Positions 12,364-59,593 of a stretch of DNA of 64,000 bases are shown here, piece by piece. The stretch is from a virus (lineage: Duplodnaviria; Caudoviricetes). The stretch lies in IMG/VR virus record IMGVR_UViG_3300050336_000035, positions 64,001-128,000 of that record; one strand, 5' to 3'. Both the position numbers and the translations under genes were made by a program. Numbering within the stretch: the first letter of the stretch is position 1; each line of letters opens with the position of its first letter. A model generated the notes under the pieces. That model saw only the letters and a list, made by a program, of their open reading frames with translations, was not told where the DNA came from and did not search any database.

Positions 12364-12630
12364 AACCAAACCAAATGACACTTCTATAGCATTTAAAGAA
12401 AGGCTTTTATATGAGAAAAGATGGATTAACTGAGCAAGAAGGAAAAATAATGGATTCATTAGTAGATGCTTGGAATGAATTTATTAAATTAGATAGACAG
12501 CATCCTTGTGAAATTAATGATTTTGCAGACGGAATACATAGATGTCAATATCAATTGACTATGAGAATATTAAGAAGAGATTATCCAGAAGGATATCCAA
12601 TAAAAATATAATTCTAAAGGAGATAAATAT

Positions 12631-12876
12631 ATGAAAATTGAAATTAAAGGCGATAGTAATAGTAAACAACTAATAAAAATGCTTGCATGGATTGAATTGT
12701 TAGGTAATGTAGGGCACAGTGCTTCATTTAAAGTATTTGCTGATGGAGATGGTTCTACTAGATGGAAGTTCAAATTTGAAGATGAAGAACAACAGAAAGA
12801 GTTTGATTTATTGAGAAAAGAATTGTGTAAAGTACATATTGATGGAAATAAGGATATAGAATATTTTTCTATATAA
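12631..12876 (+). CDS. Hypothetical protein, paralog of 57004..57249
   Basis: Near-identical 81-aa sequence (MLAWIELLGNVGHSA.FKVFADGDGSTRWKFKFE). Confidence 0.8.
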   Translation: MKIEIKGDSNSKQLIKMLAWIELLGNVGHSASFKVFADGDGSTRWKFKFEDEEQQKEFDLLRKELCKVHIDGNKDIEYFSI

Positions 12877-14496
12877 CATGATGAAACAGCTCATTTATCA
12901 TGAGTGGAAAGGATAAAAATGTTAGAAAATATGAACACAGCTAGTCCATTTTTAACAGGTATAATTGAAGGTGAATTTATGACTTATTGTTATCAAGTTA
13001 AATGTGGTAGTAAACCTATAGCATTCACAACTTTAAAAACTAAATATATTGATTTAGCGGTATCTTATGTAAAAGAGAAATACAGTCTTAATACTTATAT
13101 TGAGGAAATAGAAAATTGTCCTGAATGGAAGATTATTTATATATACAAGCATGATTATCTAATAGAAATAATTAAATACTTACCTAAGAATCCTCAAACT
13201 TCTTATGACCATTGGATAATTGGGAAAGCATGTGGATATTCAGATGATGCTATTGGCGAATTTCTTAGTAAAAGAGTTGTAAAATAATATAATAAAAACC
13301 CAATTTGCTTCTGATTTTTGGAAAGGAGAATATTATGACAGCATTAAAATTGTATAAGTTTATTCAAGAAAATGATATAGAGCTTCGTTGGGAAGATGAA
13401 GAATTAATTGCATGGGTTGGATTTCATTGTATTAGTGAATTTACAGACATGATAGGATATGATTATTTATCAGATGGAGGATTAGATGCAAATTTACAAT
13501 ATCATTGTCTTGCTTTAGATATTGTTCCTATATGTGAATACTTTGATATTGAACCTACAGATATATTAGAAAAGGAATAATAAAAACACAATGAAATTCC
13601 ATTTTCATGTGGTTTGAAAGGAGTAATTTAAAACTATGAGATTAATAACAATTGTTGAAAATAAAATAGATATTGGAGATATTTTTATTTTTTCAGATTG
13701 TAATGCATTCATGATTAGTAAATTAGAAGATTTATATTTAGCAACACAATTATTAAATAATGGAAATAGAGAGTTAGGATTTGTTGATTATTCTGACAAG
13801 AATATATATAAATTAAAAGAAAGATTATGTCATGATTACGGAACGCCAAAAAATATAGTTCATATGAAAGATGTGAATTTATCTATATTTTAGATAAAAC
13901 CATTCTTTGGTTGTAATATAGGAGACTTAATAAAGAAATTTAAGGAGAAATTGTTATGGGAATGTATACAGGAATTAGATTTAAGGGATATGTTAAACCT
14001 CAATTTAGAGAAGATTTTGAAGGAATAGCATTAAGCGGTGATTGGAATGAATCTAACGATGAAGTATTTAGAACTTTTGGTCAGATAGGTAGGTCTGGGT
14101 TTATACCATGTGGCGGTTTATCATATATGCCTGATGAATGGGAAGTGTATGATGAATCATTAAAGGGTTCATATGATTATTATCGGTTAGCAAAGGCTAC
14201 CGATGGTTTTGAAAGAACTTGGAACAAAGATACAGGTTATTGGACTTTTCAATGTAGCTTAAAGAATTATGAAGATGAAATTGAAGAATGGTTCAAAATC
14301 GTTCCATATTTTATTGATAAGATAGAGCATCTAGAATATTTCTATGAAGAATGGACGTATAGCCAACAATATGATTTAGTTGATGGAAAAATCGAATTAA
14401 TAAATGATAGATTTAGAAAATACGGATATGAAGATTAATATTAACATAAATCTTATCTTTTATGCACTTTTAATATTATTATAATTTTTAAGGAGA

Positions 14497-15312
14497 GTGA
14501 TTACTATTTCGAAAATAGTAAATGATAAATATTATACTTCGCCAGAATTGGCAGAATACATAGTTAATAAAACAAAAGAAGTAATAGGTGTAGAAAACAT
14601 TTCAGAATATTTAGAATCATCAGCAGGGGCAGGAGTGTTTTTAGATTATCTTGATAAACCTTACATAGCTTATGATATTGAGCCTGAAGATGATAGAATT
14701 ATTAAACAAGATTTTCTTAGTCTAAATTTAGATTACAAAAAGAATAGATGCATTATAGGAAATCCACCTTATGGAGAAAAGAATGTTTTATCAGTTCAAT
14801 TCTTTAAAAAAGCTTTAGAGTTAGGTGACTATATAGTATTTATACTTCCTATTAGTCAATATAAAAATAATTATCAAATGTTTGAATTTGATATGATTTA
14901 TAGTGAAGACTTAGGATTACAACATTATACCGATAGAGATTTACAATGTTGCTTGAATATCTATAAAAGACCTAAAAATGGTTTAAATAAGAAACCGAAC
15001 TACAAGCTTAAAGACGTTGAAATAAAAGAAAATAGGCGAACAGGACAACAAATATCCGATATTAAAGATTATGATGTGGGCATTTGTTCTTTTGGAAGTG
15101 GAATTATAGGTAGGCAACCTCAATATCAAGGACAATATGCTAAAGAATTTTATTTTAAAATACATAATGATAACTTGAAAAATAGAATAATTGAATTAAT
15201 ATCAACTACCGACTGGGAATTGGAAGTTTGTAACGGAATAAGTGGTCAGACTAATTTAGCTCAATGGCAAGTATATAAATACATAAAAGAACAAATTCCA
15301 GAAATTCAGTAA
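14497..15312 (+). CDS. SAM-dependent amino-DNA methyltransferase (N6A/N4C), paralog of 58653..59456
   Basis: DKYYT, E.SAG.G.F SAM-binding motif, IGNPPY catalytic motif. Confidence 0.85.
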   Translation: MITISKIVNDKYYTSPELAEYIVNKTKEVIGVENISEYLESSAGAGVFLDYLDKPYIAYDIEPEDDRIIKQDFLSLNLDYKKNRCIIGNPPYGEKNVLSVQFFKKALELGDYIVFILPISQYKNNYQMFEFDMIYSEDLGLQHYTDRDLQCCLNIYKRPKNGLNKKPNYKLKDVEIKENRRTGQQISDIKDYDVGICSFGSGIIGRQPQYQGQYAKEFYFKIHNDNLKNRIIELISTTDWELEVCNGISGQTNLAQWQVYKYIKEQIPEIQ

Positions 15313-15396
15313 GTTTGTCACATAATTATAATATGATAATCGAAGTATACGAGAGATTGTAAGAGTAAACAGAAGTTATAGTTTACCAATTTATGA

Positions 15397-15487
15397 ATGA
15401 AAACGCTGATTCATTCACTTTTTAAAAGTGATTTATGGTATCTGAACTAATGTCCGCTTAACCAACAAGCATATTGAATCAATGCTT
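15397..15487 (-). ncRNA. Putative guide/omega-RNA scaffold, left end of cassette 1 (reads outward)
   Basis: Minus strand: AAGCATTGATTCAATATGCTT-GTTGGTTAAGCG-GACATTAGTTC-AGATACCATAAATCACTTTTAAAAAGTGA-ATGAAT; homologous to three other copies; has its own promoter. Confidence 0.7.
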
Positions 15488-15494
15488 AATTAGA

Positions 15495-15523
15495 ATTATA
15501 ATAGTAATTGTAATAATTGTCAA
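15495..15523 (-). promoter_or_regulatory. Consensus SigA promoter driving the left scaffold RNA
   Basis: Minus strand TTGACA(15523-15518)-17bp-TATAAT(15500-15495); no ORF downstream. Confidence 0.8.
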
Positions 15524-15653
15524 TACTTTTAGTATTTTATCGTTATTAATATAAATTATGTTGACATTGTAGTTCAATTAATGTATACTAATAATTGTAA
15601 GATAACATCTCTTCCCCGTTACTACATAATATTATATAATAGCTTATGGGAGA

Positions 15654-15866
15654 GTGATATATATGGTTAAGAATAGGTTAAAAGAAATATTAGATGACAG
15701 AGGAATTAAACAAAAATGGTTAGCTGAAAAAGCAAATGTTAAAGAAAACACATTATCAGGTATCATAAATAATAAAACCGTAACAAGTGTAGATATAGCA
15801 ATAAGAATTGCAAAAGTTTTAGAAATGCCTGTTGAAGATATATTTCAAGACCAAGATTCATTTTAA
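15654..15866 (+). CDS. Cro/C1-type HTH transcriptional regulator (likely start 15663)
   Basis: NRLKEILDDRGIKQKWLAEK...TLS.I...A.RIAKVL..VEDIF HTH_3 pattern; promoter TTGACA(15561)-17-TATACT. Confidence 0.9.
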   Translation: MIYMVKNRLKEILDDRGIKQKWLAEKANVKENTLSGIINNKTVTSVDIAIRIAKVLEMPVEDIFQDQDSF

Positions 15867-15980
15867 CAGAATTATTATTCATTATTCTGAATTTTTATAT
15901 TGACATATTGAATTTATTCCCTTATAATAAAAATGTAAGTTAAAGGTTGCAACCACACTTACCAAATTTATTATAAGGGA

Positions 15981-16448
15981 GTGTCTAATATGAAATTAGA
16001 AAAATTGAATCAGTTGGGTAAAGAATGTAGTTTAAGGAAATTATCTCAATTCTTAGGTATGAGGGTTGAAGTAAGTATTAATACTCATACTCATAATAAC
16101 AATTTAATGTGTACATATTTCTATGAAAGTTTCGATTTTGATGCAGGTGAATTTATACTATGTCTATTTGATAAGAAAGATGAAACATTAAATACTAGGA
16201 TTAATAATGAATTAATTTTAGAAGTAAAAAATCTAACTGAAGATTTATATGATGATGTAATTCATATCTATACAAATGATTTTATCTTATCCATTACAAC
16301 ATTAGAACAGAAACTTATCCTTCCTAAATGCAATCATTGTGGCAAAGAAATTGAGCATAATGAATACTGGTTATCTGGAGCTTATGGTGATTTGAGATTA
16401 TGCGAAGATTGCTCTTATCCATTATATCCAATCAGTGAAGAAAATTAA
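15981..16448 (+). CDS. Conserved partner protein of the TnpB-like gene, C-terminal Zn ribbon
   Basis: CNHC...CEDC; paralog at 42604 in the same position. Confidence 0.8.
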   Translation: MSNMKLEKLNQLGKECSLRKLSQFLGMRVEVSINTHTHNNNLMCTYFYESFDFDAGEFILCLFDKKDETLNTRINNELILEVKNLTEDLYDDVIHIYTNDFILSITTLEQKLILPKCNHCGKEIEHNEYWLSGAYGDLRLCEDCSYPLYPISEEN

Positions 16449-16475
16449 AAATATGAGTAGAAAGGAGGAGTAATC

Positions 16476-17879
16476 ATGGCTATGGAAATGAGAGCAATCA
16501 AATTTTATTCCAATAATAAAACTACAACTGAAGATTTTAATCGAGGCATTAACTTTTTAACCGAATGCCAAGAAGTTGAAAATAAGCTATTAGAATATTA
16601 CTGGACTAACTTTAATGAAGTTATTAGTGTTAGAACTTGGATTGATTTCTATAGTAAAAGAATTATGATTACTTCTCCTTCTACTAAATTTCAGCATTAT
16701 ATGCAAATACTTCACATGGTTTATATGCAATTAAAAAGTTTAGAAGAAAAAACTAAGCAAAAGGTTCACTTTAAATTTGAAGATAAAATGCAACAACGCA
16801 TTTACAATTACTGTAGTAAGTTTGTTTTTGACTGGGATAGACTTGAAAAGTACATTAATAAACAAGTTAAAGAATATAAAAAGAAAGATAAGAAATATTA
16901 TGATTTCTTAATGGAAGTAAAAAATATAATAGACAATGACTTATACTTCTTAACTTTACAACAAGATATTGAAAATAAGTTTTGGGAGTTAAAAAACAAA
17001 ATAAATCTACCTAGAAAGAAGTCTAAACAAATTTGGGCTACTACGTTTCATACCGTAGATATTGAGAAGTATGAGGGTTATTGGATTTTTGTTATTGATA
17101 CTAATAAGTTTATTACTAAACGTAAAATGGAAAATTTCAGAATAGTAGTAGATATATCAGATTATCATAATAGTATATTAGATAATTATAATTTAAATAA
17201 CACTTTTACTATTAAATTTAATAATTATGATAGATTTGAAATTATTGGTGTATATGAAAAAGAAATTATTTATCCTGAACCTAAACCTACTAAAACAATT
17301 GGTATTGATATTGGCTTAAAGAATTTAATTGTATCTTCCGATGGTGATTATATTGAGCAGAATAAAACAATATTAAAGAAAGCTCAAAAATTAATTAAGA
17401 ATCAAGCAAATAGACAAAGTTTAGAAGCACATATGAAAAAGAAATTAGATAACGAAAATTATACTCTACCTGATAAAAATTATATGAAGAAGCAGAACAA
17501 ACTAAGTAGATTTGTTCAATGTGATAATCGTTATAAAGTTAAACAATTTCTCAAAGGTAAAGAAGATACCCATATCATTATGGAAGACTTACAATTAAAT
17601 GATGCTAAGACTTATAGTAAAGAAGTAAATTATATGCTTAGAAGAATGAAGATTCAAGGGGTTAAAAATGATATTTTAAAGTATACAAAAGAAATGGGTA
17701 TAAAGACAACACAAGTAAATCCAAGATATACAAGTATTGATTGCCCTATCTGTGGAAATAGAGACAAACAAAATAGACAAACACAAGAATTATTTAAATG
17801 TACTAAATGTAGTCATACAGATAATGCAGACCATAATGCTAGTGTTAATATTGAAAATAGATATTTGAAAGCACAATGA
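16476..17879 (+). CDS. tnpB: TnpB/Cas12f-like RNA-guided endonuclease, RuvC triad intact
   Basis: RuvC-I IGIDIG, RuvC-II IMEDL, YTS.DCP.CG...C.KC Zn ribbon, RuvC-III NADHNAS.NI. Confidence 0.88.
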   Translation: MAMEMRAIKFYSNNKTTTEDFNRGINFLTECQEVENKLLEYYWTNFNEVISVRTWIDFYSKRIMITSPSTKFQHYMQILHMVYMQLKSLEEKTKQKVHFKFEDKMQQRIYNYCSKFVFDWDRLEKYINKQVKEYKKKDKKYYDFLMEVKNIIDNDLYFLTLQQDIENKFWELKNKINLPRKKSKQIWATTFHTVDIEKYEGYWIFVIDTNKFITKRKMENFRIVVDISDYHNSILDNYNLNNTFTIKFNNYDRFEIIGVYEKEIIYPEPKPTKTIGIDIGLKNLIVSSDGDYIEQNKTILKKAQKLIKNQANRQSLEAHMKKKLDNENYTLPDKNYMKKQNKLSRFVQCDNRYKVKQFLKGKEDTHIIMEDLQLNDAKTYSKEVNYMLRRMKIQGVKNDILKYTKEMGIKTTQVNPRYTSIDCPICGNRDKQNRQTQELFKCTKCSHTDNADHNASVNIENRYLKAQ

Positions 17880-17888
17880 GGATATGTT

Positions 17889-18086
17889 ATGAATGATGGA
17901 TATTATGAAACAATTGGATTTTTAGGACAAAAATTTACTTGGTATTTTTCAAATGATTCATGTGTTGTAGTTAATGAAGCCACTGAAGAAGAATGCGAGT
18001 TTCCTATTTCAAAAATTAGTATTACAAATGATACAATAAAAATTAAAGGAAGCCATTCTTTTACAATTTTACCTTTGGATAACTAA
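17889..18086 (+). CDS. Hypothetical protein inserted between the nuclease gene and the right scaffold (cassette 1 only)
   Basis: 65-aa ORF with SD GAGGA; absent from cassette 2. Confidence 0.6.
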   Translation: MNDGYYETIGFLGQKFTWYFSNDSCVVVNEATEEECEFPISKISITNDTIKIKGSHSFTILPLDN

Positions 18087-18104
18087 GTGAATATTTCAAT
18101 AAAA

Positions 18105-18195
18105 AGGCATTTATTTATATGCCTGTAGGTTAAGCGTACTTTAGTACAGACACCACAAATCACTTTATAATAAGTGAATAAATAACGTGTTTTAT
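18105..18195 (+). ncRNA. Putative guide/omega-RNA scaffold, right end of cassette 1
   Basis: AGGCAT..ATGCCT-GTAGGTTAAGCG-TACTTTAGTAC-AGACACCACAAATCACTTTATAATAAGTGA-ATAAAT, covarying with the left copy. Confidence 0.7.
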
Positions 18196-38916: not shown

Positions 38917-39180
38917 ATATTAAAATAATATATTGACAACTTTTTAGAAAAGGAATATACTGATAATGGAAATACAAAATATCAAATGCCAATACATAAT
39001 GGAAAATAAGGATAGATATATAGTAAGTAAGGAAGATGGCAAATGGGTGCTTCATTTGGTTGATAGTGATCACCCTAATGGGAAATTTTTGACAAGGAAT
39101 AAGGATATTGAAAAGATATGGGAGAGAATACCAGAAGGTATGACTTAAAAACAAGATATAATATGATTTATAGAAATTTC

Positions 39181-39245
39181 AATTTTGAAACCCACTAATA
39201 TCAAGGGCTTCGGGACACGAAAAGTGAATAGAAAGCACATTTTAT
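39181..39245 (+). repeat. Extended junction element (AAACCC...AAGGG hairpin + AC.C.AAAAGTGA + core site), copy 1 of 3
   Basis: Aligns without gaps with 49116-49180 and 58565-58629. Confidence 0.65.
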
Positions 39246-40593
39246 TGTTTTGTTAAAATAATTTGAAAGGAGTACATAATGAATAATATTGAATATGCTT
39301 GCCAAAGAATTGGAATAGACGAAAAACAATTAAAAATATTATTTGAATCTATAGTTGGAAATAAATTAGAAATCCCTGAAAAGATATATATATTTCATCA
39401 TTGTAAAACCATTCCAGATATGATTTATGACAGATATAATTGGGAGGTAACTGATGGTAAAGACACTACTTTATACTTAGGAGACTTTGACGGACTTAGT
39501 GATTTTCTATATAGAAATAAACATATAATAAATGATTTTGAAGATATGTCTGATTGGAGCATGAATAAAGTAATTAAAAATATTTTAACTAATACAAATA
39601 AATTTTTAAAAACAACATAAAAGACAAATTTTATAATGTTTAAGAAAGGAGATAAGCAATATGTTTTGGACTAAGAAAAATAAAGTAGAAGTAAACCATA
39701 TAAGAGTATGTGAAGTTAATCAAGGGTTGCCTGAGTGTAATAGTGTTAATAAACTTAGAGAATATCAGCAACAACTCAAAAATATAAAAAATTCTTCATT
39801 AACTGATATCTCTGCAAAATACTTGAATGTTGTTAATGATAGTTATTTAAGAAGTGAGTTATATTGTATTGAAGTTATATTAAATCAATTAATTCGTCGA
39901 ACAGATAATACATATATTAATTTTGAAGAAAGATTTAAAGCTTTCGGAAAAGAAATTGATGACTATATAAAGAAAGATTGTATAATAGATGATTTAATTA
40001 AGAAAATAAAAGTTGAGAAAAACATATTAGGAATTGAATAGAATTCAGTATTTATAGCATTTAAATTGGAGGTTTTTTATGAAAATTTGTAACAACACAA
40101 CAGGAATACGTGATTGTAATGATAAATATTATAAATATGGGTTATGTATTAAGAATAGAAAATGTAAAGATTCTTTATTTGTAAATGAAAATGTTATTAA
40201 ACAATTGATAATTGAAAAATGTGAATATAATAAAATATTTGCTGATTGTATAGATAATCTTATTTATGAAGCAAAAACAATATGAAATGCCGTTTTTATT
40301 TTACATGAAAGGAATGAAGTTTTTATGGAAGGATTTGTTATTGATATAAATAAATTTAATCCAACACCTGATTATCAAGATTTTAAAAAAATAGATGAAA
40401 CTATAAATTATTTATTAATAAAAAGAATACCATTTGTTACAACTCAAGATATAATAGTTTTTCATGAAGATATTTACTTGAAATATAAAGATAATATAAA
40501 TTATTGTGTTAATGAATTACAAAATGAATTTTTAACAGAAACAATTAAAAAAATATAAAGCATATAAAATGCGTTTCATCAAAAGGAGAAAAC

Positions 40594-42002: not shown

Positions 42003-42093
42003 ATAAATTCTCAGATTCATTCACTTTTTAAAAGTGATTTGTGGTATCTGAACTAACGTCCGCTTAACCAACAAGCATATTGAATCAATGCTT
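42003..42093 (-). ncRNA. Putative guide/omega-RNA scaffold, left end of cassette 2
   Basis: Two substitutions relative to the cassette-1 left scaffold; minus-strand promoter TTGACA(42129-42124)-17-TATACT(42106-42101). Confidence 0.7.
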
Positions 42094-42271
42094 AGTTATA
42101 AGTATAAGGAATATTGTGGCAAATGTCAATAAGTTTTACTAATACTTAATTAATATTAAAATAATATCTATTGACAATACCGTTTAATTAATATATACTA
42201 ATAATTGTAAAAGCAACATCTCTTCCGAACCATTACATAATAATGTATAATTAATATGGGAGAGTGATGAT

Positions 42272-42433
42272 ATGCCAAAGTTTAAAAATAATCATATTGG
42301 ATTTAATGTAAGTGATAAATTAAAGAAAAAGACAGAAGAAGTTTCTAAAGAACATGAAATGAGTTTAGCTGATTTTATGAGATACATTTTACAAAAATAT
42401 ATAGATGAATACGAAATCAAGAAAAACAAGTAG
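42272..42433 (+). CDS. Ribbon-helix-helix (CopG-like) regulator (not in ORF track)
   Basis: MPKFKNNHIGFNVSDKLKKKTEEVSKEHEMSLADFMRYILQKYIDEYEIKKNK; promoter TTGACA(42171)-17-TATACT. Confidence 0.75.
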   Translation: MPKFKNNHIGFNVSDKLKKKTEEVSKEHEMSLADFMRYILQKYIDEYEIKKNK

Positions 42434-42603
42434 ATATTAAGAGCAATAATATTCTAGTTTAGCTTATTCGGTTTATATTAAGATATTTAACCTGTTTTAA
42501 TATCGTTAGTAATTTGATATTTAGTAATTATTCCCTTATAATAAAAATGTAAGTTAAAGGTTGCAACCACACTTACCTAAATTATTATAAGGGAGTGTAG
42601 ATT

Positions 42604-43047
42604 ATGGTTAAAATGGATTATGAAAGAAAGTGTGAGTTAAAAAAATTACAACAGTTTCAAGGACACAGAGTTGAAGTTAGTTTTAACACTCATACACATG
42701 ATAACAATGTGATGGTTACATTTGTTTATAACAACTTTGATTTTGATAACGGCGAATACATATTGTGTCTTTTTGATTCAAAGGATGAAACATTGAATGC
42801 TAGACTTGAGAAGAATCTTATAACAACTGTAACAAACATTGATGAAGATATATATCATGATGTTGTACATATTTATACTAATAATTTTATACTCAGCATA
42901 ACAACTCTTGAAGAACCCATACGCCTACCTAGATGTAATCATTGTGGAAATGAAATTGAATATAATGAATATTGGCTTGATGGTGCTTATGGTAGGTTAA
43001 GACTTTGCGAAGATTGTTGTTTGGATTTGTATCCTGATAACGAATAG
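42604..43047 (+). CDS. Conserved partner protein of the TnpB-like gene, C-terminal Zn ribbon
   Basis: Paralog of 15981..16448. Confidence 0.8.
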   Translation: MVKMDYERKCELKKLQQFQGHRVEVSFNTHTHDNNVMVTFVYNNFDFDNGEYILCLFDSKDETLNARLEKNLITTVTNIDEDIYHDVVHIYTNNFILSITTLEEPIRLPRCNHCGNEIEYNEYWLDGAYGRLRLCEDCCLDLYPDNE

Positions 43048-43074
43048 AAAATTAAATAGAAAGGAGGAGTAATC

Positions 43075-44478
43075 ATGGCTACTGAAATGAGAGCAATTAA
43101 ATTCTATTCTAATAATAAAACAACAACTGAAGATTTCAATAAAGGTATTAACTTTCTATCTGAATGCCAAGAAGTTGAAAATGAATTGTTAGAGTATTAT
43201 TGGACTAACTTTACTGAAGTTATTAGAGCGAAATCACAACTTGTTTTTTATAAGAATAGAGTCATGATTACTTCTCCTGCTACAAAATTTCAACACTATC
43301 AACAAATTTTATTTATGGTATTTAGAACACTTAAAAGTTTAGAAGAAAGAATTACTCAAAAAATACATTTTAAATTTGATGATAAAATGAAACAAAGAAT
43401 ATATAACTATTGTAGTAAATTCGTTTTTGATTGGGATAAACTTGAAACATATGTATCTAAACAAATTAAACAGTATAAAAAGAAAGACAAAAAGTATTAT
43501 GACTTCTTAATAGAAGTTCAAAAAATTATTGATAATGAACAGGCTTTTTTAAAACTAAAACAAGATATAGAAAATAAGTTTTGGGATTTAAAAAATAAAA
43601 TTAATCAACCTGTTAAGAAATCTAAGCAAATATGGGCTACAACTTTTCATACTGTAGATATCGAAAAGTATAATGATTATTGGGTATTTGTGATTGACAC
43701 CAATAAATTTTTAAGTCCTCGCAATATGGATAAGTTTAAAATAGTTGTAAGTATTTCTGATTATCACAGAGATATTCTTAATTCCAATACACTTCAAAAT
43801 ACTTTTTCTATTAAGTTAAATGATTATGGTAGAATCGAAATTTTTGGAGCATATGAAATTGATATAAATTATCCAACACCTAATCCTGTTGATACTATTG
43901 GCATAGATATAGGTTTGAAGAAACTTATTACATCATCTGATGGTGAATTTATTGAACAGAATAAAAACATTGTAAAGAAAGCTCAAAAGTTAATTAAGAA
44001 TCAAGCTAATAGACAGAGTTTGGAAGCTCATATGAAAAAGAAATTAGAAGATGAGAATTTTACTTTACCTGATAAAAATTATATGAAGAAACAAAACAAA
44101 TTAAGTAGATTTGTTCAATGTGATAATAGGTATAAAGTTAAACAATTTCTCAAAGGTAGGGAAGATACTCATATCATTATGGAAGATTTGCATTTAAATG
44201 ATGCCAAGACATATAGTAAAGAAGTAAATTATATGTTAAGAAGGATGAAGATACAAGGCATTAAAAATGACATTCTAAAATACACAAAAGAGATGGGCAT
44301 CAAGACTACACAAGTAAATCCTAGATATACGAGTATTGAGTGTCCTATATGTGGCTGTATTGATAAAAAAAATAGACAGACACAAGAAACATTTAAATGT
44401 GTTAAATGTAGTCATACAGATAATGCAGACCACAATGCTAGTATTAATATTGAAAATAAATATTTAAAGGCACAATAA
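43075..44478 (+). CDS. tnpB: TnpB/Cas12f-like RNA-guided endonuclease, RuvC triad intact
   Basis: IGIDIG, IMEDL, CP.CG..C.KC, NADHNAS.NI; 467 aa like copy 1. Confidence 0.88.
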   Translation: MATEMRAIKFYSNNKTTTEDFNKGINFLSECQEVENELLEYYWTNFTEVIRAKSQLVFYKNRVMITSPATKFQHYQQILFMVFRTLKSLEERITQKIHFKFDDKMKQRIYNYCSKFVFDWDKLETYVSKQIKQYKKKDKKYYDFLIEVQKIIDNEQAFLKLKQDIENKFWDLKNKINQPVKKSKQIWATTFHTVDIEKYNDYWVFVIDTNKFLSPRNMDKFKIVVSISDYHRDILNSNTLQNTFSIKLNDYGRIEIFGAYEIDINYPTPNPVDTIGIDIGLKKLITSSDGEFIEQNKNIVKKAQKLIKNQANRQSLEAHMKKKLEDENFTLPDKNYMKKQNKLSRFVQCDNRYKVKQFLKGREDTHIIMEDLHLNDAKTYSKEVNYMLRRMKIQGIKNDILKYTKEMGIKTTQVNPRYTSIECPICGCIDKKNRQTQETFKCVKCSHTDNADHNASINIENKYLKAQ

Positions 44479-44486
44479 TAAATATA

Positions 44487-44573
44487 AGGCTTTAATTTAA
44501 CGCCTATAGTTAAGCGTACATTAGTACAGATACTATAAATCGCTTTTAAAAGTGAATGAATTGTAGGATTTAT
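44487..44573 (+). ncRNA. Putative guide/omega-RNA scaffold, right end of cassette 2
   Basis: AGGC..GCCT-ATAGTTAAGCG-TACATTAGTAC-AGATACTATAAATCGCTTTTAAAAGTGA-ATGAAT. Confidence 0.7.
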
Positions 44574-56965: not shown

Positions 56966-57003
56966 AATAAAAAATCTATTTTATAAAGAAAGGAATTTTA
57001 AGA

Positions 57004-57249
57004 ATGAAAATTGATATTAAAGGAAATGGAAATACAAAACAATTAATTAACATGCTTGCGTGGATTGAATTACTAGGTAATGTAGGACATAGTGCTGATT
57101 TTAAAGTGTTTGCCGATGGAGATGGCTCTACTAGATGGAAATTTAAGTTTGAAAATGAAGAACAACAGAAAGAATTTGATGCTTTAAGAAAAGATTTGTG
57201 TAAAGAATATATAAACACTAACATAGATATAGAACATTTTTCAATATAA
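57004..57249 (+). CDS. Hypothetical protein, paralog of 12631..12876
   Basis: Near-identical 81 aa; single-gene cassette between sites 56967 and 57255. Confidence 0.8.
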   Translation: MKIDIKGNGNTKQLINMLAWIELLGNVGHSADFKVFADGDGSTRWKFKFENEEQQKEFDALRKDLCKEYINTNIDIEHFSI

Positions 57250-58652
57250 GGAAGACAAGTACTGTATTTTGTCATAAACGAGGTGATTAAATGAACCAAA
57301 ATTTTAACTTTGTATTTTGTAAGCATCATGGAGATTTTGAATATTGCTACAAACAATGTAAAAAGGATTGTCCTTCTGTAAGTAATTTATGGCATAAATT
57401 TATAAGAAATCCTATAGTAAATTTAATTACGGCAATAAGATACAAATTTCAGAAATGTAACCAATTACCTACACAATGTAGTTTTCTTTATAAGAATAAA
57501 TATTGTTTGTTTCAAGATAGAAATTGTTATTCAAACAGAACTAAAAAGTGATTAAAAGACTCATTCTATTATAAGTAGAAAGGAAATTAATAATGGAATT
57601 TTATAAAATATATTGTACTTGTTTTACTACATTCTTTTTAATTGCAATGTTATTAAACATTCCAATAGAAGTAAAACAAATAAATCCAAAGCGTGGTGCA
57701 TTTTTTATGAAGAAATAATTAACACAAAAAGCTTGTTTTATTGTAAAGGAGTTACTAAATGAAATACATAATATTTTTCAACACTAATCCTTATATGGAT
57801 ATACACAGTTTGGAATGGAATTAAAATTGGAATATATAGTGGAAGTTTTAATTTTGAGATTGAAGCATATCCAATAAAAAGATTTTTTAAGAAGAAATAA
57901 TATAATATATAGCCGTATCCTAGCCCTCAAATATATATCAAATGTACAAATGGTGGTTAGAAAATCTGTGAGAGCTAGGAACACTTCATATTTTGAACGA
58001 AAGGTAGGAAATTATACATATGCAAACATATAAAATGAATTGTATTCGCTGTAATAAAGAAATGAGTTATATTCCAGATTCTGTGCTTGAAGCTAGAGGA
58101 TATGTAGTTATGTATTGTGAAAATTGTAAACAGGAATTTTTAGTACCAGATAGCAATGAAGATTTACATATAATAAATGAGTGAAGAACAAGAAAGGAAA
58201 TTATTTTATGGAATATATTAAAAGATTAACCGAGCAGCAACAAAAAGTTTTTGATGTAATGTTACATATGGCAAGAGTAAGACAGAGTTATTTATTATCT
58301 TCAGAAGATAGGGGTATAGGTAAATCAATTACTCTTAATGAATTAGCCTTTACATTACAGACTATAGGGTATGATGTGTATTTATTAAATCCTCATCCTG
58401 TTAAAGATTACTATGTTAATAATATAATTGCTCTTGATAGCAAATCTTATGAGGGACTATTTAGGGAAAATTCTGTTGTTATAGCAGATGAATCAAGATA
58501 CGAAATGATGGATGATATTTTAGAGTATTGTAAATACAAAAAAGTACCTATTGTTGGATATGTCAATTTTGAAACTAGCCTATAGCAAGGGTTTTAAGAC
58601 TCAAAAAGTGAATGAAAAACACATTTTATTGTTAATATAAATTTAAAAGGAT

Positions 58653-59456
58653 GTGATTACTATATCAAAAATTGTAAATGACAAATATTACACATCACCA
58701 GAATTAGCAGAATACATAGTTAATAAAACTAAAAAAATTATAGGTGAAGAAAAAATTACTGAATATATAGAACCATCAGCAGGTGGAGGAGCATTTCTTG
58801 ATTATCTTGATAAATCATTTTTAGCATATGATATTGAACCTGAAGATAATAGAATTCTTAAACAAGACTTTCTTAGCTTGGACTTAGATTATAAAAAAGG
58901 TAGATGTATTATTGGAAATCCACCTTATGGAGAATTTAATCTTTTGTCTGAAAAGTTTTTTAAAAAATCTATAAAAATTTGTGATTATATTTCATTTATT
59001 CAACCTATTAGTCAATATAAAAATAATATAAAGCTATATGAATTTGACTTAATATATAGTGAAGATTTAGGAAAACAAATATATACTGATAGGGAAATTC
59101 ATTGTTGTTTAAATATTTATAGAAGACCTATAAATGGAGAAGTAAATAAAAAACAAAACTATAAATTAAAAGATGTATCAATCACGAGATTAGATAGAGG
59201 AAGTAAAACAATTATTAATGAATATGATATTAATATTTGTTCTTATGGTGCATCAATAGGAAAAATACCTAAATTTATAGGACAATACAGTCAAGAACTT
59301 TATATAAAAATATGTAATGAAAAATATAGAAACCAAATAATAAATTTAATTATTAATACTAATTGGAAACAAATAATTGATATGACTGCAACACCAAAAC
59401 TTCAAATATGGAGAGTATATAAATACATAAAAGAACAAATTCCAGAAATTCAATAA
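58653..59456 (+). CDS. Amino-DNA methyltransferase, paralog of 14497..15312
   Basis: EPSAG.G.F and IGNPPY motifs. Confidence 0.85.
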   Translation: MITISKIVNDKYYTSPELAEYIVNKTKKIIGEEKITEYIEPSAGGGAFLDYLDKSFLAYDIEPEDNRILKQDFLSLDLDYKKGRCIIGNPPYGEFNLLSEKFFKKSIKICDYISFIQPISQYKNNIKLYEFDLIYSEDLGKQIYTDREIHCCLNIYRRPINGEVNKKQNYKLKDVSITRLDRGSKTIINEYDINICSYGASIGKIPKFIGQYSQELYIKICNEKYRNQIINLIINTNWKQIIDMTATPKLQIWRVYKYIKEQIPEIQ

Positions 59457-59593
59457 ATTGTAACAGTATTGTAATATGCAATTCAAAGTAAATAAAAGTA
59501 TGAGTGAGTATATGGAAGTTGTAAGTTACTAAAAACATGATAAAATCAGGATTTGGTTGTAAAAATAAAATTTAATTTATAGGAGGATAAAAT

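Follow-up and report, generated by a model that had tools for sequence, protein, structure and literature searches.

A stretch of 64,000 nucleotides of phage DNA, running from base 64001 to base 128000 of a virus record that is complete at 167,493 bp (IMGVR_UViG_3300050336_000035, here G000; direct terminal repeats, 26.7% G+C), raises the question of how a TnpB-family nuclease gene is maintained and spread where no transposase accompanies it and an RNA-like scaffold points outward from each of its two ends. This whole stretch is referred to below as the window. Three such cassettes are present in G000: c1 (15397-18195) and c2 (42003-44573) lie in the window, and c3 lies outside it (approximately C1:44859-47313). 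They are about 80% identical and share a common plan: an outward-facing scaffold with its own promoter, a small regulator gene, a gene for an orphan Zn-ribbon protein, the gene for a TnpB of 467 aa, and a second outward-facing scaffold. In c1 the order is junction dyad, minus-strand scaffold, promoter, helix-turn-helix (HTH) gene, leader, 152-aa Zn-ribbon gene, tnpB, 65-aa open reading frame (ORF), plus-strand scaffold and dyad. In c2 the HTH gene is replaced by an Arc/CopG ribbon-helix-helix (RHH) gene and the 65-aa ORF is absent. An earlier note on this DNA had listed these features, and on re-examination of the window each of them is found where it had been placed (Table 1); the interpretation attached to them is supported in part. 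The reading that we favour is that the cassette is a transposase-less, dual-guide TnpB homing element that would spread among related phages; taken as a whole chain of steps, we regard it as evenly poised between right and wrong.

TnpB is the ancestor of Cas12, and it is in the TnpB family that the nuclease of the cassette belongs. Pfam identifies OrfB_IS605 and Cas12f1-like TNB domains in it (E 6e-15), with scores of 31.3 bits for PF01385 (cut-off 30.5) and 55.6 bits for PF07282 (cut-off 26.3). The RuvC triad D278/E370/D452 is invariant in 35 members of its clade. An AlphaFold2 model of the protein has a predicted local distance difference test (pLDDT) score of 90.6 and, when used as a Foldseek query, matches AsCas12f, OsCas12f, CnCas12f1, ISFba1 TnpB and ISDra2 TnpB over its full length (E 1e-17 to 6e-9), with a probability of 1.00 for AsCas12f, ISFba1 TnpB and ISDra2 TnpB. 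A profile built from 35 clade members likewise matches solved Cas12f and TnpB chains. The TnpB/Cas12f-like nuclease with D/E/D RuvC residues that had been described earlier is thus borne out by its Pfam domains, its fold matches and its invariant triad: the protein is almost certainly a member of the TnpB family, with the TnpB/Cas12f fold and an intact RuvC site. A dead repressor of the TldR type was considered and rejected, since the catalytic triad is intact in all copies.

Relatives of the nuclease form a compact clade of about 55 proteins that are 42-85% identical, followed by a gap to generic TnpBs at E ~1e-10. Members of the clade are found almost only on phage-like contigs, in 1-3 copies each, near terminase, HNH, methylase and dNK genes, and TnpA was never adjacent to them in the loci inspected. 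In the complete 167-kb genome, searches for the Y1 transposase (PF01797) and for serine recombinases (PF00239) gave no hit, with positive controls, in agreement with the earlier description of the cassette as transposase-free. Pairwise identities among the TnpBs of c1, c2 and c3 are 78-80%, and the c1 protein reaches 85% with a copy from another phage. The three cassettes are not recent intragenomic copies and, since the c1 TnpB is closer to the copy of another phage than to those of c2 and c3, the identities point to exchange between phages. A blastn search of the cassette against a phage GenBank collection gave no match.

The four scaffolds of the window (Table 1) were examined in an alignment of 18 ends from 11 loci (G000 and ten others), using RNAalifold and an explicit count of base pairs. 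The ~85-nt scaffold has four helices. A 5′ hairpin lies at one end and a terminal hairpin at the other; between them, the helix TGGT/ACCA closes around GTTAAGC and a short inner hairpin. Across the 19 pairs, 93.2% of the cells are paired, and 15 of the pairs have changed on both sides. None of 500 shuffles matched these values, and slid alignments paired just 32-46% of cells. The compensatory changes that had been noticed earlier among the window's scaffolds (AAGCAT/ATGCTT vs. AGGCAT/ATGCCT, GGAC/GTTC vs. GTAC/GTAC and TGGT/ACCA vs. TATAGT/ACTATA) are real, and the same pattern extends to the relatives. In addition, the unpaired internal blocks GGTTAAGC and AGATACC are nearly invariant and more conserved than the termini, while the stems vary. 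This would be expected of an RNA that is recognized by a protein, whereas a repeat bound by a transposase would be expected to conserve its tips most. On the outward strand there are 11 G-U cells against 3 A-C cells, a ratio that gives weak support, in the right direction, to an outward-read RNA.

The sequence GTTAAGCG occurs five times in the window, where 0.2 occurrences are expected, and four of the five are within scaffolds. A covariance model (CM), a search suggested in the earlier note, detects six full scaffolds in the 167-kb genome, two per cassette, at 95-102 bits, together with one partial relic at 32 bits. Comparison of the scaffold and of the whole window with Rfam gave no family match apart from two tRNA genes (RF00005; 7468-7538 and 7627-7698). 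Taken together, the covariation, the G-U excess, the conserved internal unpaired blocks and the dedicated promoter of the left copy (see below) support the view that the cassette ends behave as one structured RNA read outward, unlike plain terminal repeats; the alternative named in the earlier note, that they are merely DNA terminal repeats, is disfavoured by the covariation, the internal conservation and the left promoter.

The two scaffolds of a cassette differ in how they would be expressed. The right one begins approximately 10-130 nt past the tnpB stop codon in every relative checked, down to 45% protein identity; this is the canonical place of an omega-RNA, and the right scaffold very probably is one. 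A promoter scan found no strong promoter ahead of it, and the RNA would therefore be cut from the tnpB transcript; such processing has been reported for TnpB (PMC10278001). The left scaffold is present only in seven cassettes, i.e. c1-c3 of G000 and those of L004, L005, L006 and L254, whose TnpBs are at least 73% identical to that of c1 and all of which also carry the regulator and Zn-ribbon genes. The next relative, L007 (TnpB 69% identical to that of c1), has only tnpB and the right scaffold. The minus-strand TTGACA-17-TATAAT promoter that had been read ahead of the c1 left scaffold scores 12/12. In the six left ends inspected (c1-c3 and L004-L006, that is, all except L254), the -10 element is at a fixed distance from helix 1, and in five of these six the exact TTGACA is found at 17 bp. 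In an analysis restricted to these six left ends, all four helices are preserved and nine pairs are compensatory, and this despite the fact that left copies are more diverged than right copies (60-78% vs. 72-90% identity). That the promoter and the four helices are retained under this higher divergence speaks against the idea that the left copy is a relic or a repeat kept alike by passive homogenization, c1 and c2 excepted. We consider it probable that the left scaffold is transcribed and yields an RNA equivalent in kind to the right one; that this RNA is also used as a guide has, in our estimate, an even chance of being correct.

The exception concerns the left scaffolds of c1 and c2, which are 98% identical, while the TnpBs of the two cassettes are 79% and their right scaffolds 75% identical. 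The difference between the left scaffolds and the TnpBs indicates recent gene conversion between c1 and c2, apparently confined to the left ends.

In the homing reading, the right scaffold would come from the 3′ end of the transcript that carries tnpB, as for canonical TnpB; the left scaffold would be an independent gene for a small RNA, served by a sigma-70 promoter of its own and directed outward on the opposite strand. Each RNA would extend beyond the end of the element into the adjoining phage DNA, and this 3′ extension would be the guide. TnpB loaded with either RNA would then cut a co-infecting or related genome in which the flank is not joined to the cassette, and recombinational repair from the cassette-bearing genome would copy the cassette in. 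The element's own junctions would be spared because their inner arm, ATRAAT, differs from the generic ATRAAA at the target-adjacent base, and the small HTH or Arc-like regulator would restrain expression. Precedents are the parts played by TnpB in transposon retention and in plasmid gene drive, with the TnpB-dependent, TnpA-independent spread of IS605 in plasmid populations (PMC11870625), and the concept of ‘non-restorative homing’ for TnpB (PMC13565253). What is new relative to known TnpB homing is the second outward guide gene. A more specific version, in which ATRAAA would be the target-adjacent motif (TAM), ATRAAT would mark self, and guides made of spacer and flank would cut both sides of cassette-free alleles in rival phages, is tentative, and we regard it as rather doubtful. 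In that version the cassette would be an RNA-guided homing drive that works without a transposase and is retargeted whenever its neighbours change, and possibly a step from transposon-bound omega-RNA toward independently encoded guides. That two guides would cover two empty-site alleles, as the earlier note proposed, is likewise putative.

To our knowledge, TnpB has so far been described with one guide RNA only, bound to the right end of a transposon for which TnpA is required as well. If the homing reading is true, RNA-guided nucleases could serve as true homing endonucleases in phage populations. It would also mean that the gene for a guide RNA can become separate from that of its nuclease. 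Furthermore, a scaffold of ~85 nt may suffice for this clade, which would be of practical interest for compact genome editors, and a selfish element would be linked to a genome-wide punctuation motif of SPbeta-like phages.

This motif is found at the junctions. In 23/23 ends, the bases after the terminal hairpin read ATRAAT, then six variable positions (N6), then TTTYAT, close variants of either arm included; the junctions described in the earlier note, where the hairpin runs into the inner arm ATRAAT of a site with a variable N6 spacer, are thus confirmed, with WTTYAT as the outer arm. Dyads of the form ATRAAW-N6-WTTYAT number 51 in the genome, compared to 8.5 +/- 3.1 expected (6-fold), and the pattern is enriched in the loci of the relatives too. 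Within the window, most small genes have such a dyad 10-25 nt ahead of their ribosome-binding site (e.g. at 898, 3274, 3659, 6529, 13591 and 14446). With 51 dyads genome-wide and one at every end, the cassette ends are thus built into a genome-wide punctuation motif. The possibility that the dyad forms an extra RNA hairpin was rejected: the R/Y positions of its arms vary independently, A-C combinations being as common as pairs, and this lack of covariation identifies it as a DNA dyad. A target-site duplication was rejected as well, the left and right N6 being unrelated in all six cassettes examined. The inner arms differ from generic ones in having a spacer-proximal T in 17/23 cassette ends vs. 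23/94 generic arms (Fisher p=3.7e-5). This asymmetry fits a TAM-like distinction between self and non-self, and would also fit two kinds of recombinase half-site.

Guides of omega-RNAs match their own flank. Correspondingly, the putative guides, taken as the 20 nt past each inner arm of the cassettes, match their own flank and nothing else in the genome. The similarity between c1 and c2 reaches as far as the inner arm and ends exactly at the border between arm and spacer. The earlier proposal that the guide would consist of N6 plus flank fits this border and the unrelated left and right N6; it fits less well where ends share their N6.

This sharing is the first of several points that weigh against the homing reading. 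The right ends of c1 and L007, at unrelated loci in different phages, have the whole dyad in common, including the N6 AACGTG, and the left end of c1 resembles a relic end at window position 1069 over 27 nt at 93%, including 5/6 N6 bases. As spacers are common to ends at different loci, the N6 or the whole dyad may sometimes travel with the end, and the start of the guide is therefore ambiguous. Moreover, positions 7-12 of the putative guide (TTTYAT) coincide with a motif common to ~50 sites of the genome, and in 6/23 cases the inner arm has the final A of a generic arm, so that self-protection would be weaker. Neither two guides for one TnpB nor a guide at the left end was reported in the literature searched, and a second guide at the left end is thus without published precedent. 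Finally, related phages lacking the cassette, which the earlier note had proposed to look for, were found in none of the collections searched; homing is accordingly putative. The cassette flanks had no match in the 65-kb contig of the closest relative, exact flank words were absent from the metagenome and viral contigs, and a metagenome scan with the protein profile had only distant TnpBs among the matches listed. The flank proteins have relatives on viral contigs at no more than 62% identity, and tblastx among all cassette flanks revealed one weak shared neighbour, between c1 and L004.

One rival takes the ends as DNA terminal inverted repeats, which a recombinase acting in trans would use together with the dyads; the right-end RNA and TnpB would only bias inheritance. 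The enzyme could be a host recombinase of Xer type or one of four phage proteins with the tyrosine-recombinase fold (four PF00589 hits in the genome), and the movement would be similar to that of integron cassettes or pdif modules. We consider this unlikely. The junctions are indeed 6-6-6 dyads with the geometry of a recombinase core, in the excess given above, and a c1-c2 homology that ends exactly at the arm/spacer border would suit such an enzyme, but in none of the six cassettes do the left and right N6 show a target-site relation. A spacer is common to two pairs of ends at different loci, and the c1 left end and the relic at 1069 form inverted sites with nearly the same spacer; against this, the most conserved bases are internal and not terminal, the letters of the hairpins change with pairing kept, and a conserved outward promoter is located exactly at helix 1, all of which fits RNA. 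Inverted ends are also incompatible with the single-strand transposition of IS200/IS605.

The recombinase-like geometry itself may have another source. An ORF just upstream of the window (G000 C1:62281-62817) encodes an MrpR-like protein, i.e. a dead recombinase, and this gene suggests that G000 is an SPbeta-like phage whose host belongs to the low-G+C Bacillota. In SPbeta, MrpR has the tyrosine-recombinase fold, has lost catalysis, and serves as the master repressor that binds the repeated intergenic element SPBRE (PMC10516654). By analogy, and given that they precede most ribosome-binding sites, the dyads may be bound as operators by an MrpR-like repressor, much as SPBRE is, rather than being recombination sites, and such an operator role would explain their geometry without recombination. 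In the comparison with integrons and pdif modules, the 6-fold enrichment of dyads and the four PF00589 hits therefore stand beside an operator role for the MrpR-like protein that is equally possible, and a coupling of the cassette to a dyad recombination system appears improbable to us. As a separate observation, a DndB-MrpR gene pair directly adjoins the TnpB cassette in two other phages (L006:1-2207 and L255:5270-7726), to its left in one and to its right in the other.

Another rival concerns the left end: only the right-end RNA would guide TnpB, and the left copy would be a regulatory or decoy RNA that might titrate TnpB, or might direct binding that, with no productive homing, blocks read-through into the cassette or represses the neighbouring gene. 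Within one subclade, the left copy and the genes for the regulator and the Zn-ribbon protein came in jointly, a pattern suggestive of a control module, and the left promoter is back to back with that of the regulator. The faster divergence of the left copies also suits this proposal, yet they retain the four helices and the invariant GGTTAAGC and AGATACC blocks, as the right copies do. They retain the same inner arm and junction geometry as well, while a decoy would have no need of a precise element end; the catalytic triad, in turn, is intact. On balance we think this explanation quite unlikely. That the left scaffold is a functionless leftover right end of a second, opposite TnpB element whose gene was lost is very improbable: a decayed TnpB 3′ fragment with a terminal hairpin does exist (window ~905-1101), but seven cassettes, from five phages or more and with TnpBs that differ by up to 27%, have retained the left scaffold together with its consensus promoter and its constant spacing to the regulator gene. 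The left scaffold also shows compensatory substitutions and is adjoined by no tnpB remnant.

Among the known systems that come closest to the cassette are the IS200/IS605 elements with TnpB and omega-RNA (e.g. ISDra2; PDB 8exa, 8h1j), including the TnpB-only IS1341 type. With these it shares the protein family, the fold, the RuvC D/E/D residues and the Zn-ribbon TNB domain, as well as a structured scaffold that lies immediately 3′ of tnpB and reaches to the edge of the element, which allows the flank to be used as guide. A small Arc-like RHH regulator, of which there is one copy here, has also been described in IS605 elements (bioRxiv 10.64898/2026.09.24.754181). In contrast, IS200/IS605 elements have a Y1 HUH TnpA, and no TnpA is present anywhere in this genome. 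Their subterminal hairpins are on the same strand and they lack terminal inverted repeats, whereas the cassette ends are inverted repeats of ~85 nt. The second, promoter-driven outward scaffold at the left end and the extra orphan Zn-ribbon gene are peculiar to the cassette, and its clade differs further in being restricted to phage-like contigs with 1-3 diverged copies and in having a scaffold that matches no Rfam family. IS607 elements have a serine-recombinase TnpA, of which (PF00239) there is none in this genome.

The best full-length matches of the nuclease, both in sequence and in structure, are Cas12f proteins of similar size (AsCas12f, 8j12; OsCas12f, 9nzq; CnCas12f1, 8hr5). Type V Cas12f systems have a CRISPR array, adaptation genes and acquired spacers, whereas no array of CRISPR direct repeats was found in or beside the cassettes, which also lack adaptation genes; their guide would be fixed flank DNA. 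The free-standing homing endonuclease genes of T-even phages (Seg, Mob) are likewise nuclease genes among phage genes, exchanged between related phages. For these, and for TnpB non-restorative homing and plasmid gene drive (PMC13565253; PMC11870625), a cut of the allele that lacks the element and its copying in by recombination would be expected, as for the cassette. Seg and Mob recognize their sites by protein, whereas here recognition would be by RNA guides from both flanks, and homing is putative. With SPbeta and its SPBRE/MrpR system, G000 shares a repeated intergenic motif and an MrpR-like protein (PMC10516654). SPbeta has about ten sites of a 15-bp motif, compared to ~50 dyads of 6-6-6 form before most small genes in this phage.

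Table 1. Positions of the features of cassettes c1 and c2 in the window.
Feature	Position	Strand	Support
c1 left junction dyad, outer arm ATGAAA / N6 ACGCTG / inner arm ATTCAT	15397..15414	.	
c1 left-end scaffold, four helices, outward	15409..15488	-	CM 101.7 bits; 18-end alignment
c1 left-scaffold promoter, TTGACA-17-TATAAT, predicted start ~6-7 nt ahead of helix 1	15495..15523	-	
c1 regulator promoter, 11/12, divergent from left-RNA promoter	15561..15589	+	
c1 XRE-type HTH regulator, 67 aa	15663..15866	+	Pfam HTH_3, E 2.4e-10
c1 promoter (12/12) and conserved 5′ leader with long hairpin and GGTTGCAACC loop, preceding Zn-ribbon gene	15900..15989	+	
c1 orphan protein, 152 aa, C-terminal CxxC...CxxC Zn-ribbon	15990..16448	+	
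c1 TnpB-family nuclease, 467 aa	16476..17879	+	
c1 65-aa ORF between tnpB and right scaffold, in c1 only, no Pfam/PHROG family	17889..18086	+	
c1 right-end scaffold, omega-RNA position	18105..18183	+	CM 101.2 bits
c1 right junction dyad, ATAAAT / AACGTG / TTTTAT	18178..18195	.	
c2 left junction dyad, ATAAAT / TCTCAG / ATTCAT	42003..42020	.	
c2 left-end scaffold	42015..42094	-	CM 99.8 bits
c2 left-scaffold promoter, TTGACA-17-TATACT	42101..42129	-	
c2 Arc/CopG-type RHH regulator, in place of the c1/c3 HTH	42272..42433	+	PHROG 582, 7325
c2 Zn-ribbon partner, 65% identical to c1 partner	42604..43047	+	
c2 TnpB, 467 aa, 79% identical to c1 TnpB	43075..44478	+	
c2 right-end scaffold, 8 nt past tnpB stop	44487..44561	+	CM 96.9 bits
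c2 right junction dyad, ATGAAT / TGTAGG / ATTTAT	44556..44573	.	

The remaining genes of the cassette are less well characterized by homology. Two further consensus promoters in c1 would drive the regulator gene (11/12) and the partner and tnpB genes (12/12). The Zn-ribbon partner belongs to no Pfam or PHROG family, has homologues only in sister cassettes, and gives a structure model of low confidence (pLDDT 59.8). The 5′ leader before its gene (window 15900-15992 and 42514-42606; L002 990-1060) is 89% identical between c1 and c2, and contains a long hairpin with a palindromic loop, GGTTGCAACC, which buries the -10 region and the ribosome-binding site. This leader may be a regulatory RNA or an operator.

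Traces of other TnpB genes are also present in G000. In the decayed remnant at ~905-1101, the reading frame ends with ...INADLNGAYQIIKK...RVNLI and a stop codon, a motif resembling the RuvC-III of a different TnpB type. A terminal hairpin and the dyad ATGAAT-CAGCGA-TTTGAT come next (CM 31.8 bits), and over 27 nt the end of the remnant matches the left end of c1 (15397-15423) in inverted orientation at 93%, spacer included. A fourth intact TnpB of ~400 aa (...HRDVNGAINIL...) is encoded outside the window (G000 C1:54575-55807) and belongs to a more canonical family that is unrelated to the dual-scaffold clade. Among the relatives, L258 (5081-5098) and L259, which carry an identical TnpB (P0041), differ by a small-gene indel of ~310 bp located ~50 nt beyond the dyad and bounded by an 18-nt direct repeat, not by the dyad.

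Elsewhere in the window, an 84-nt repeat with 76% identity between its copies (39166-39249 and 58550-58633) ends with AAGTGAAT and a dyad (ATAGAA-AGCACA-TTTTAT and ATGAAA-AACACA-TTTTAT), and resembles the terminal hairpin arm and junction of the TnpB ends. There are also paralogous pairs that are ~80-82% identical at the DNA level and ~44 kb apart (14468-15315 vs. 58624-59459, and 12616-12876 vs. 56989-57249); one copy of a paralogous 271-aa gene is situated directly to the left of c1.

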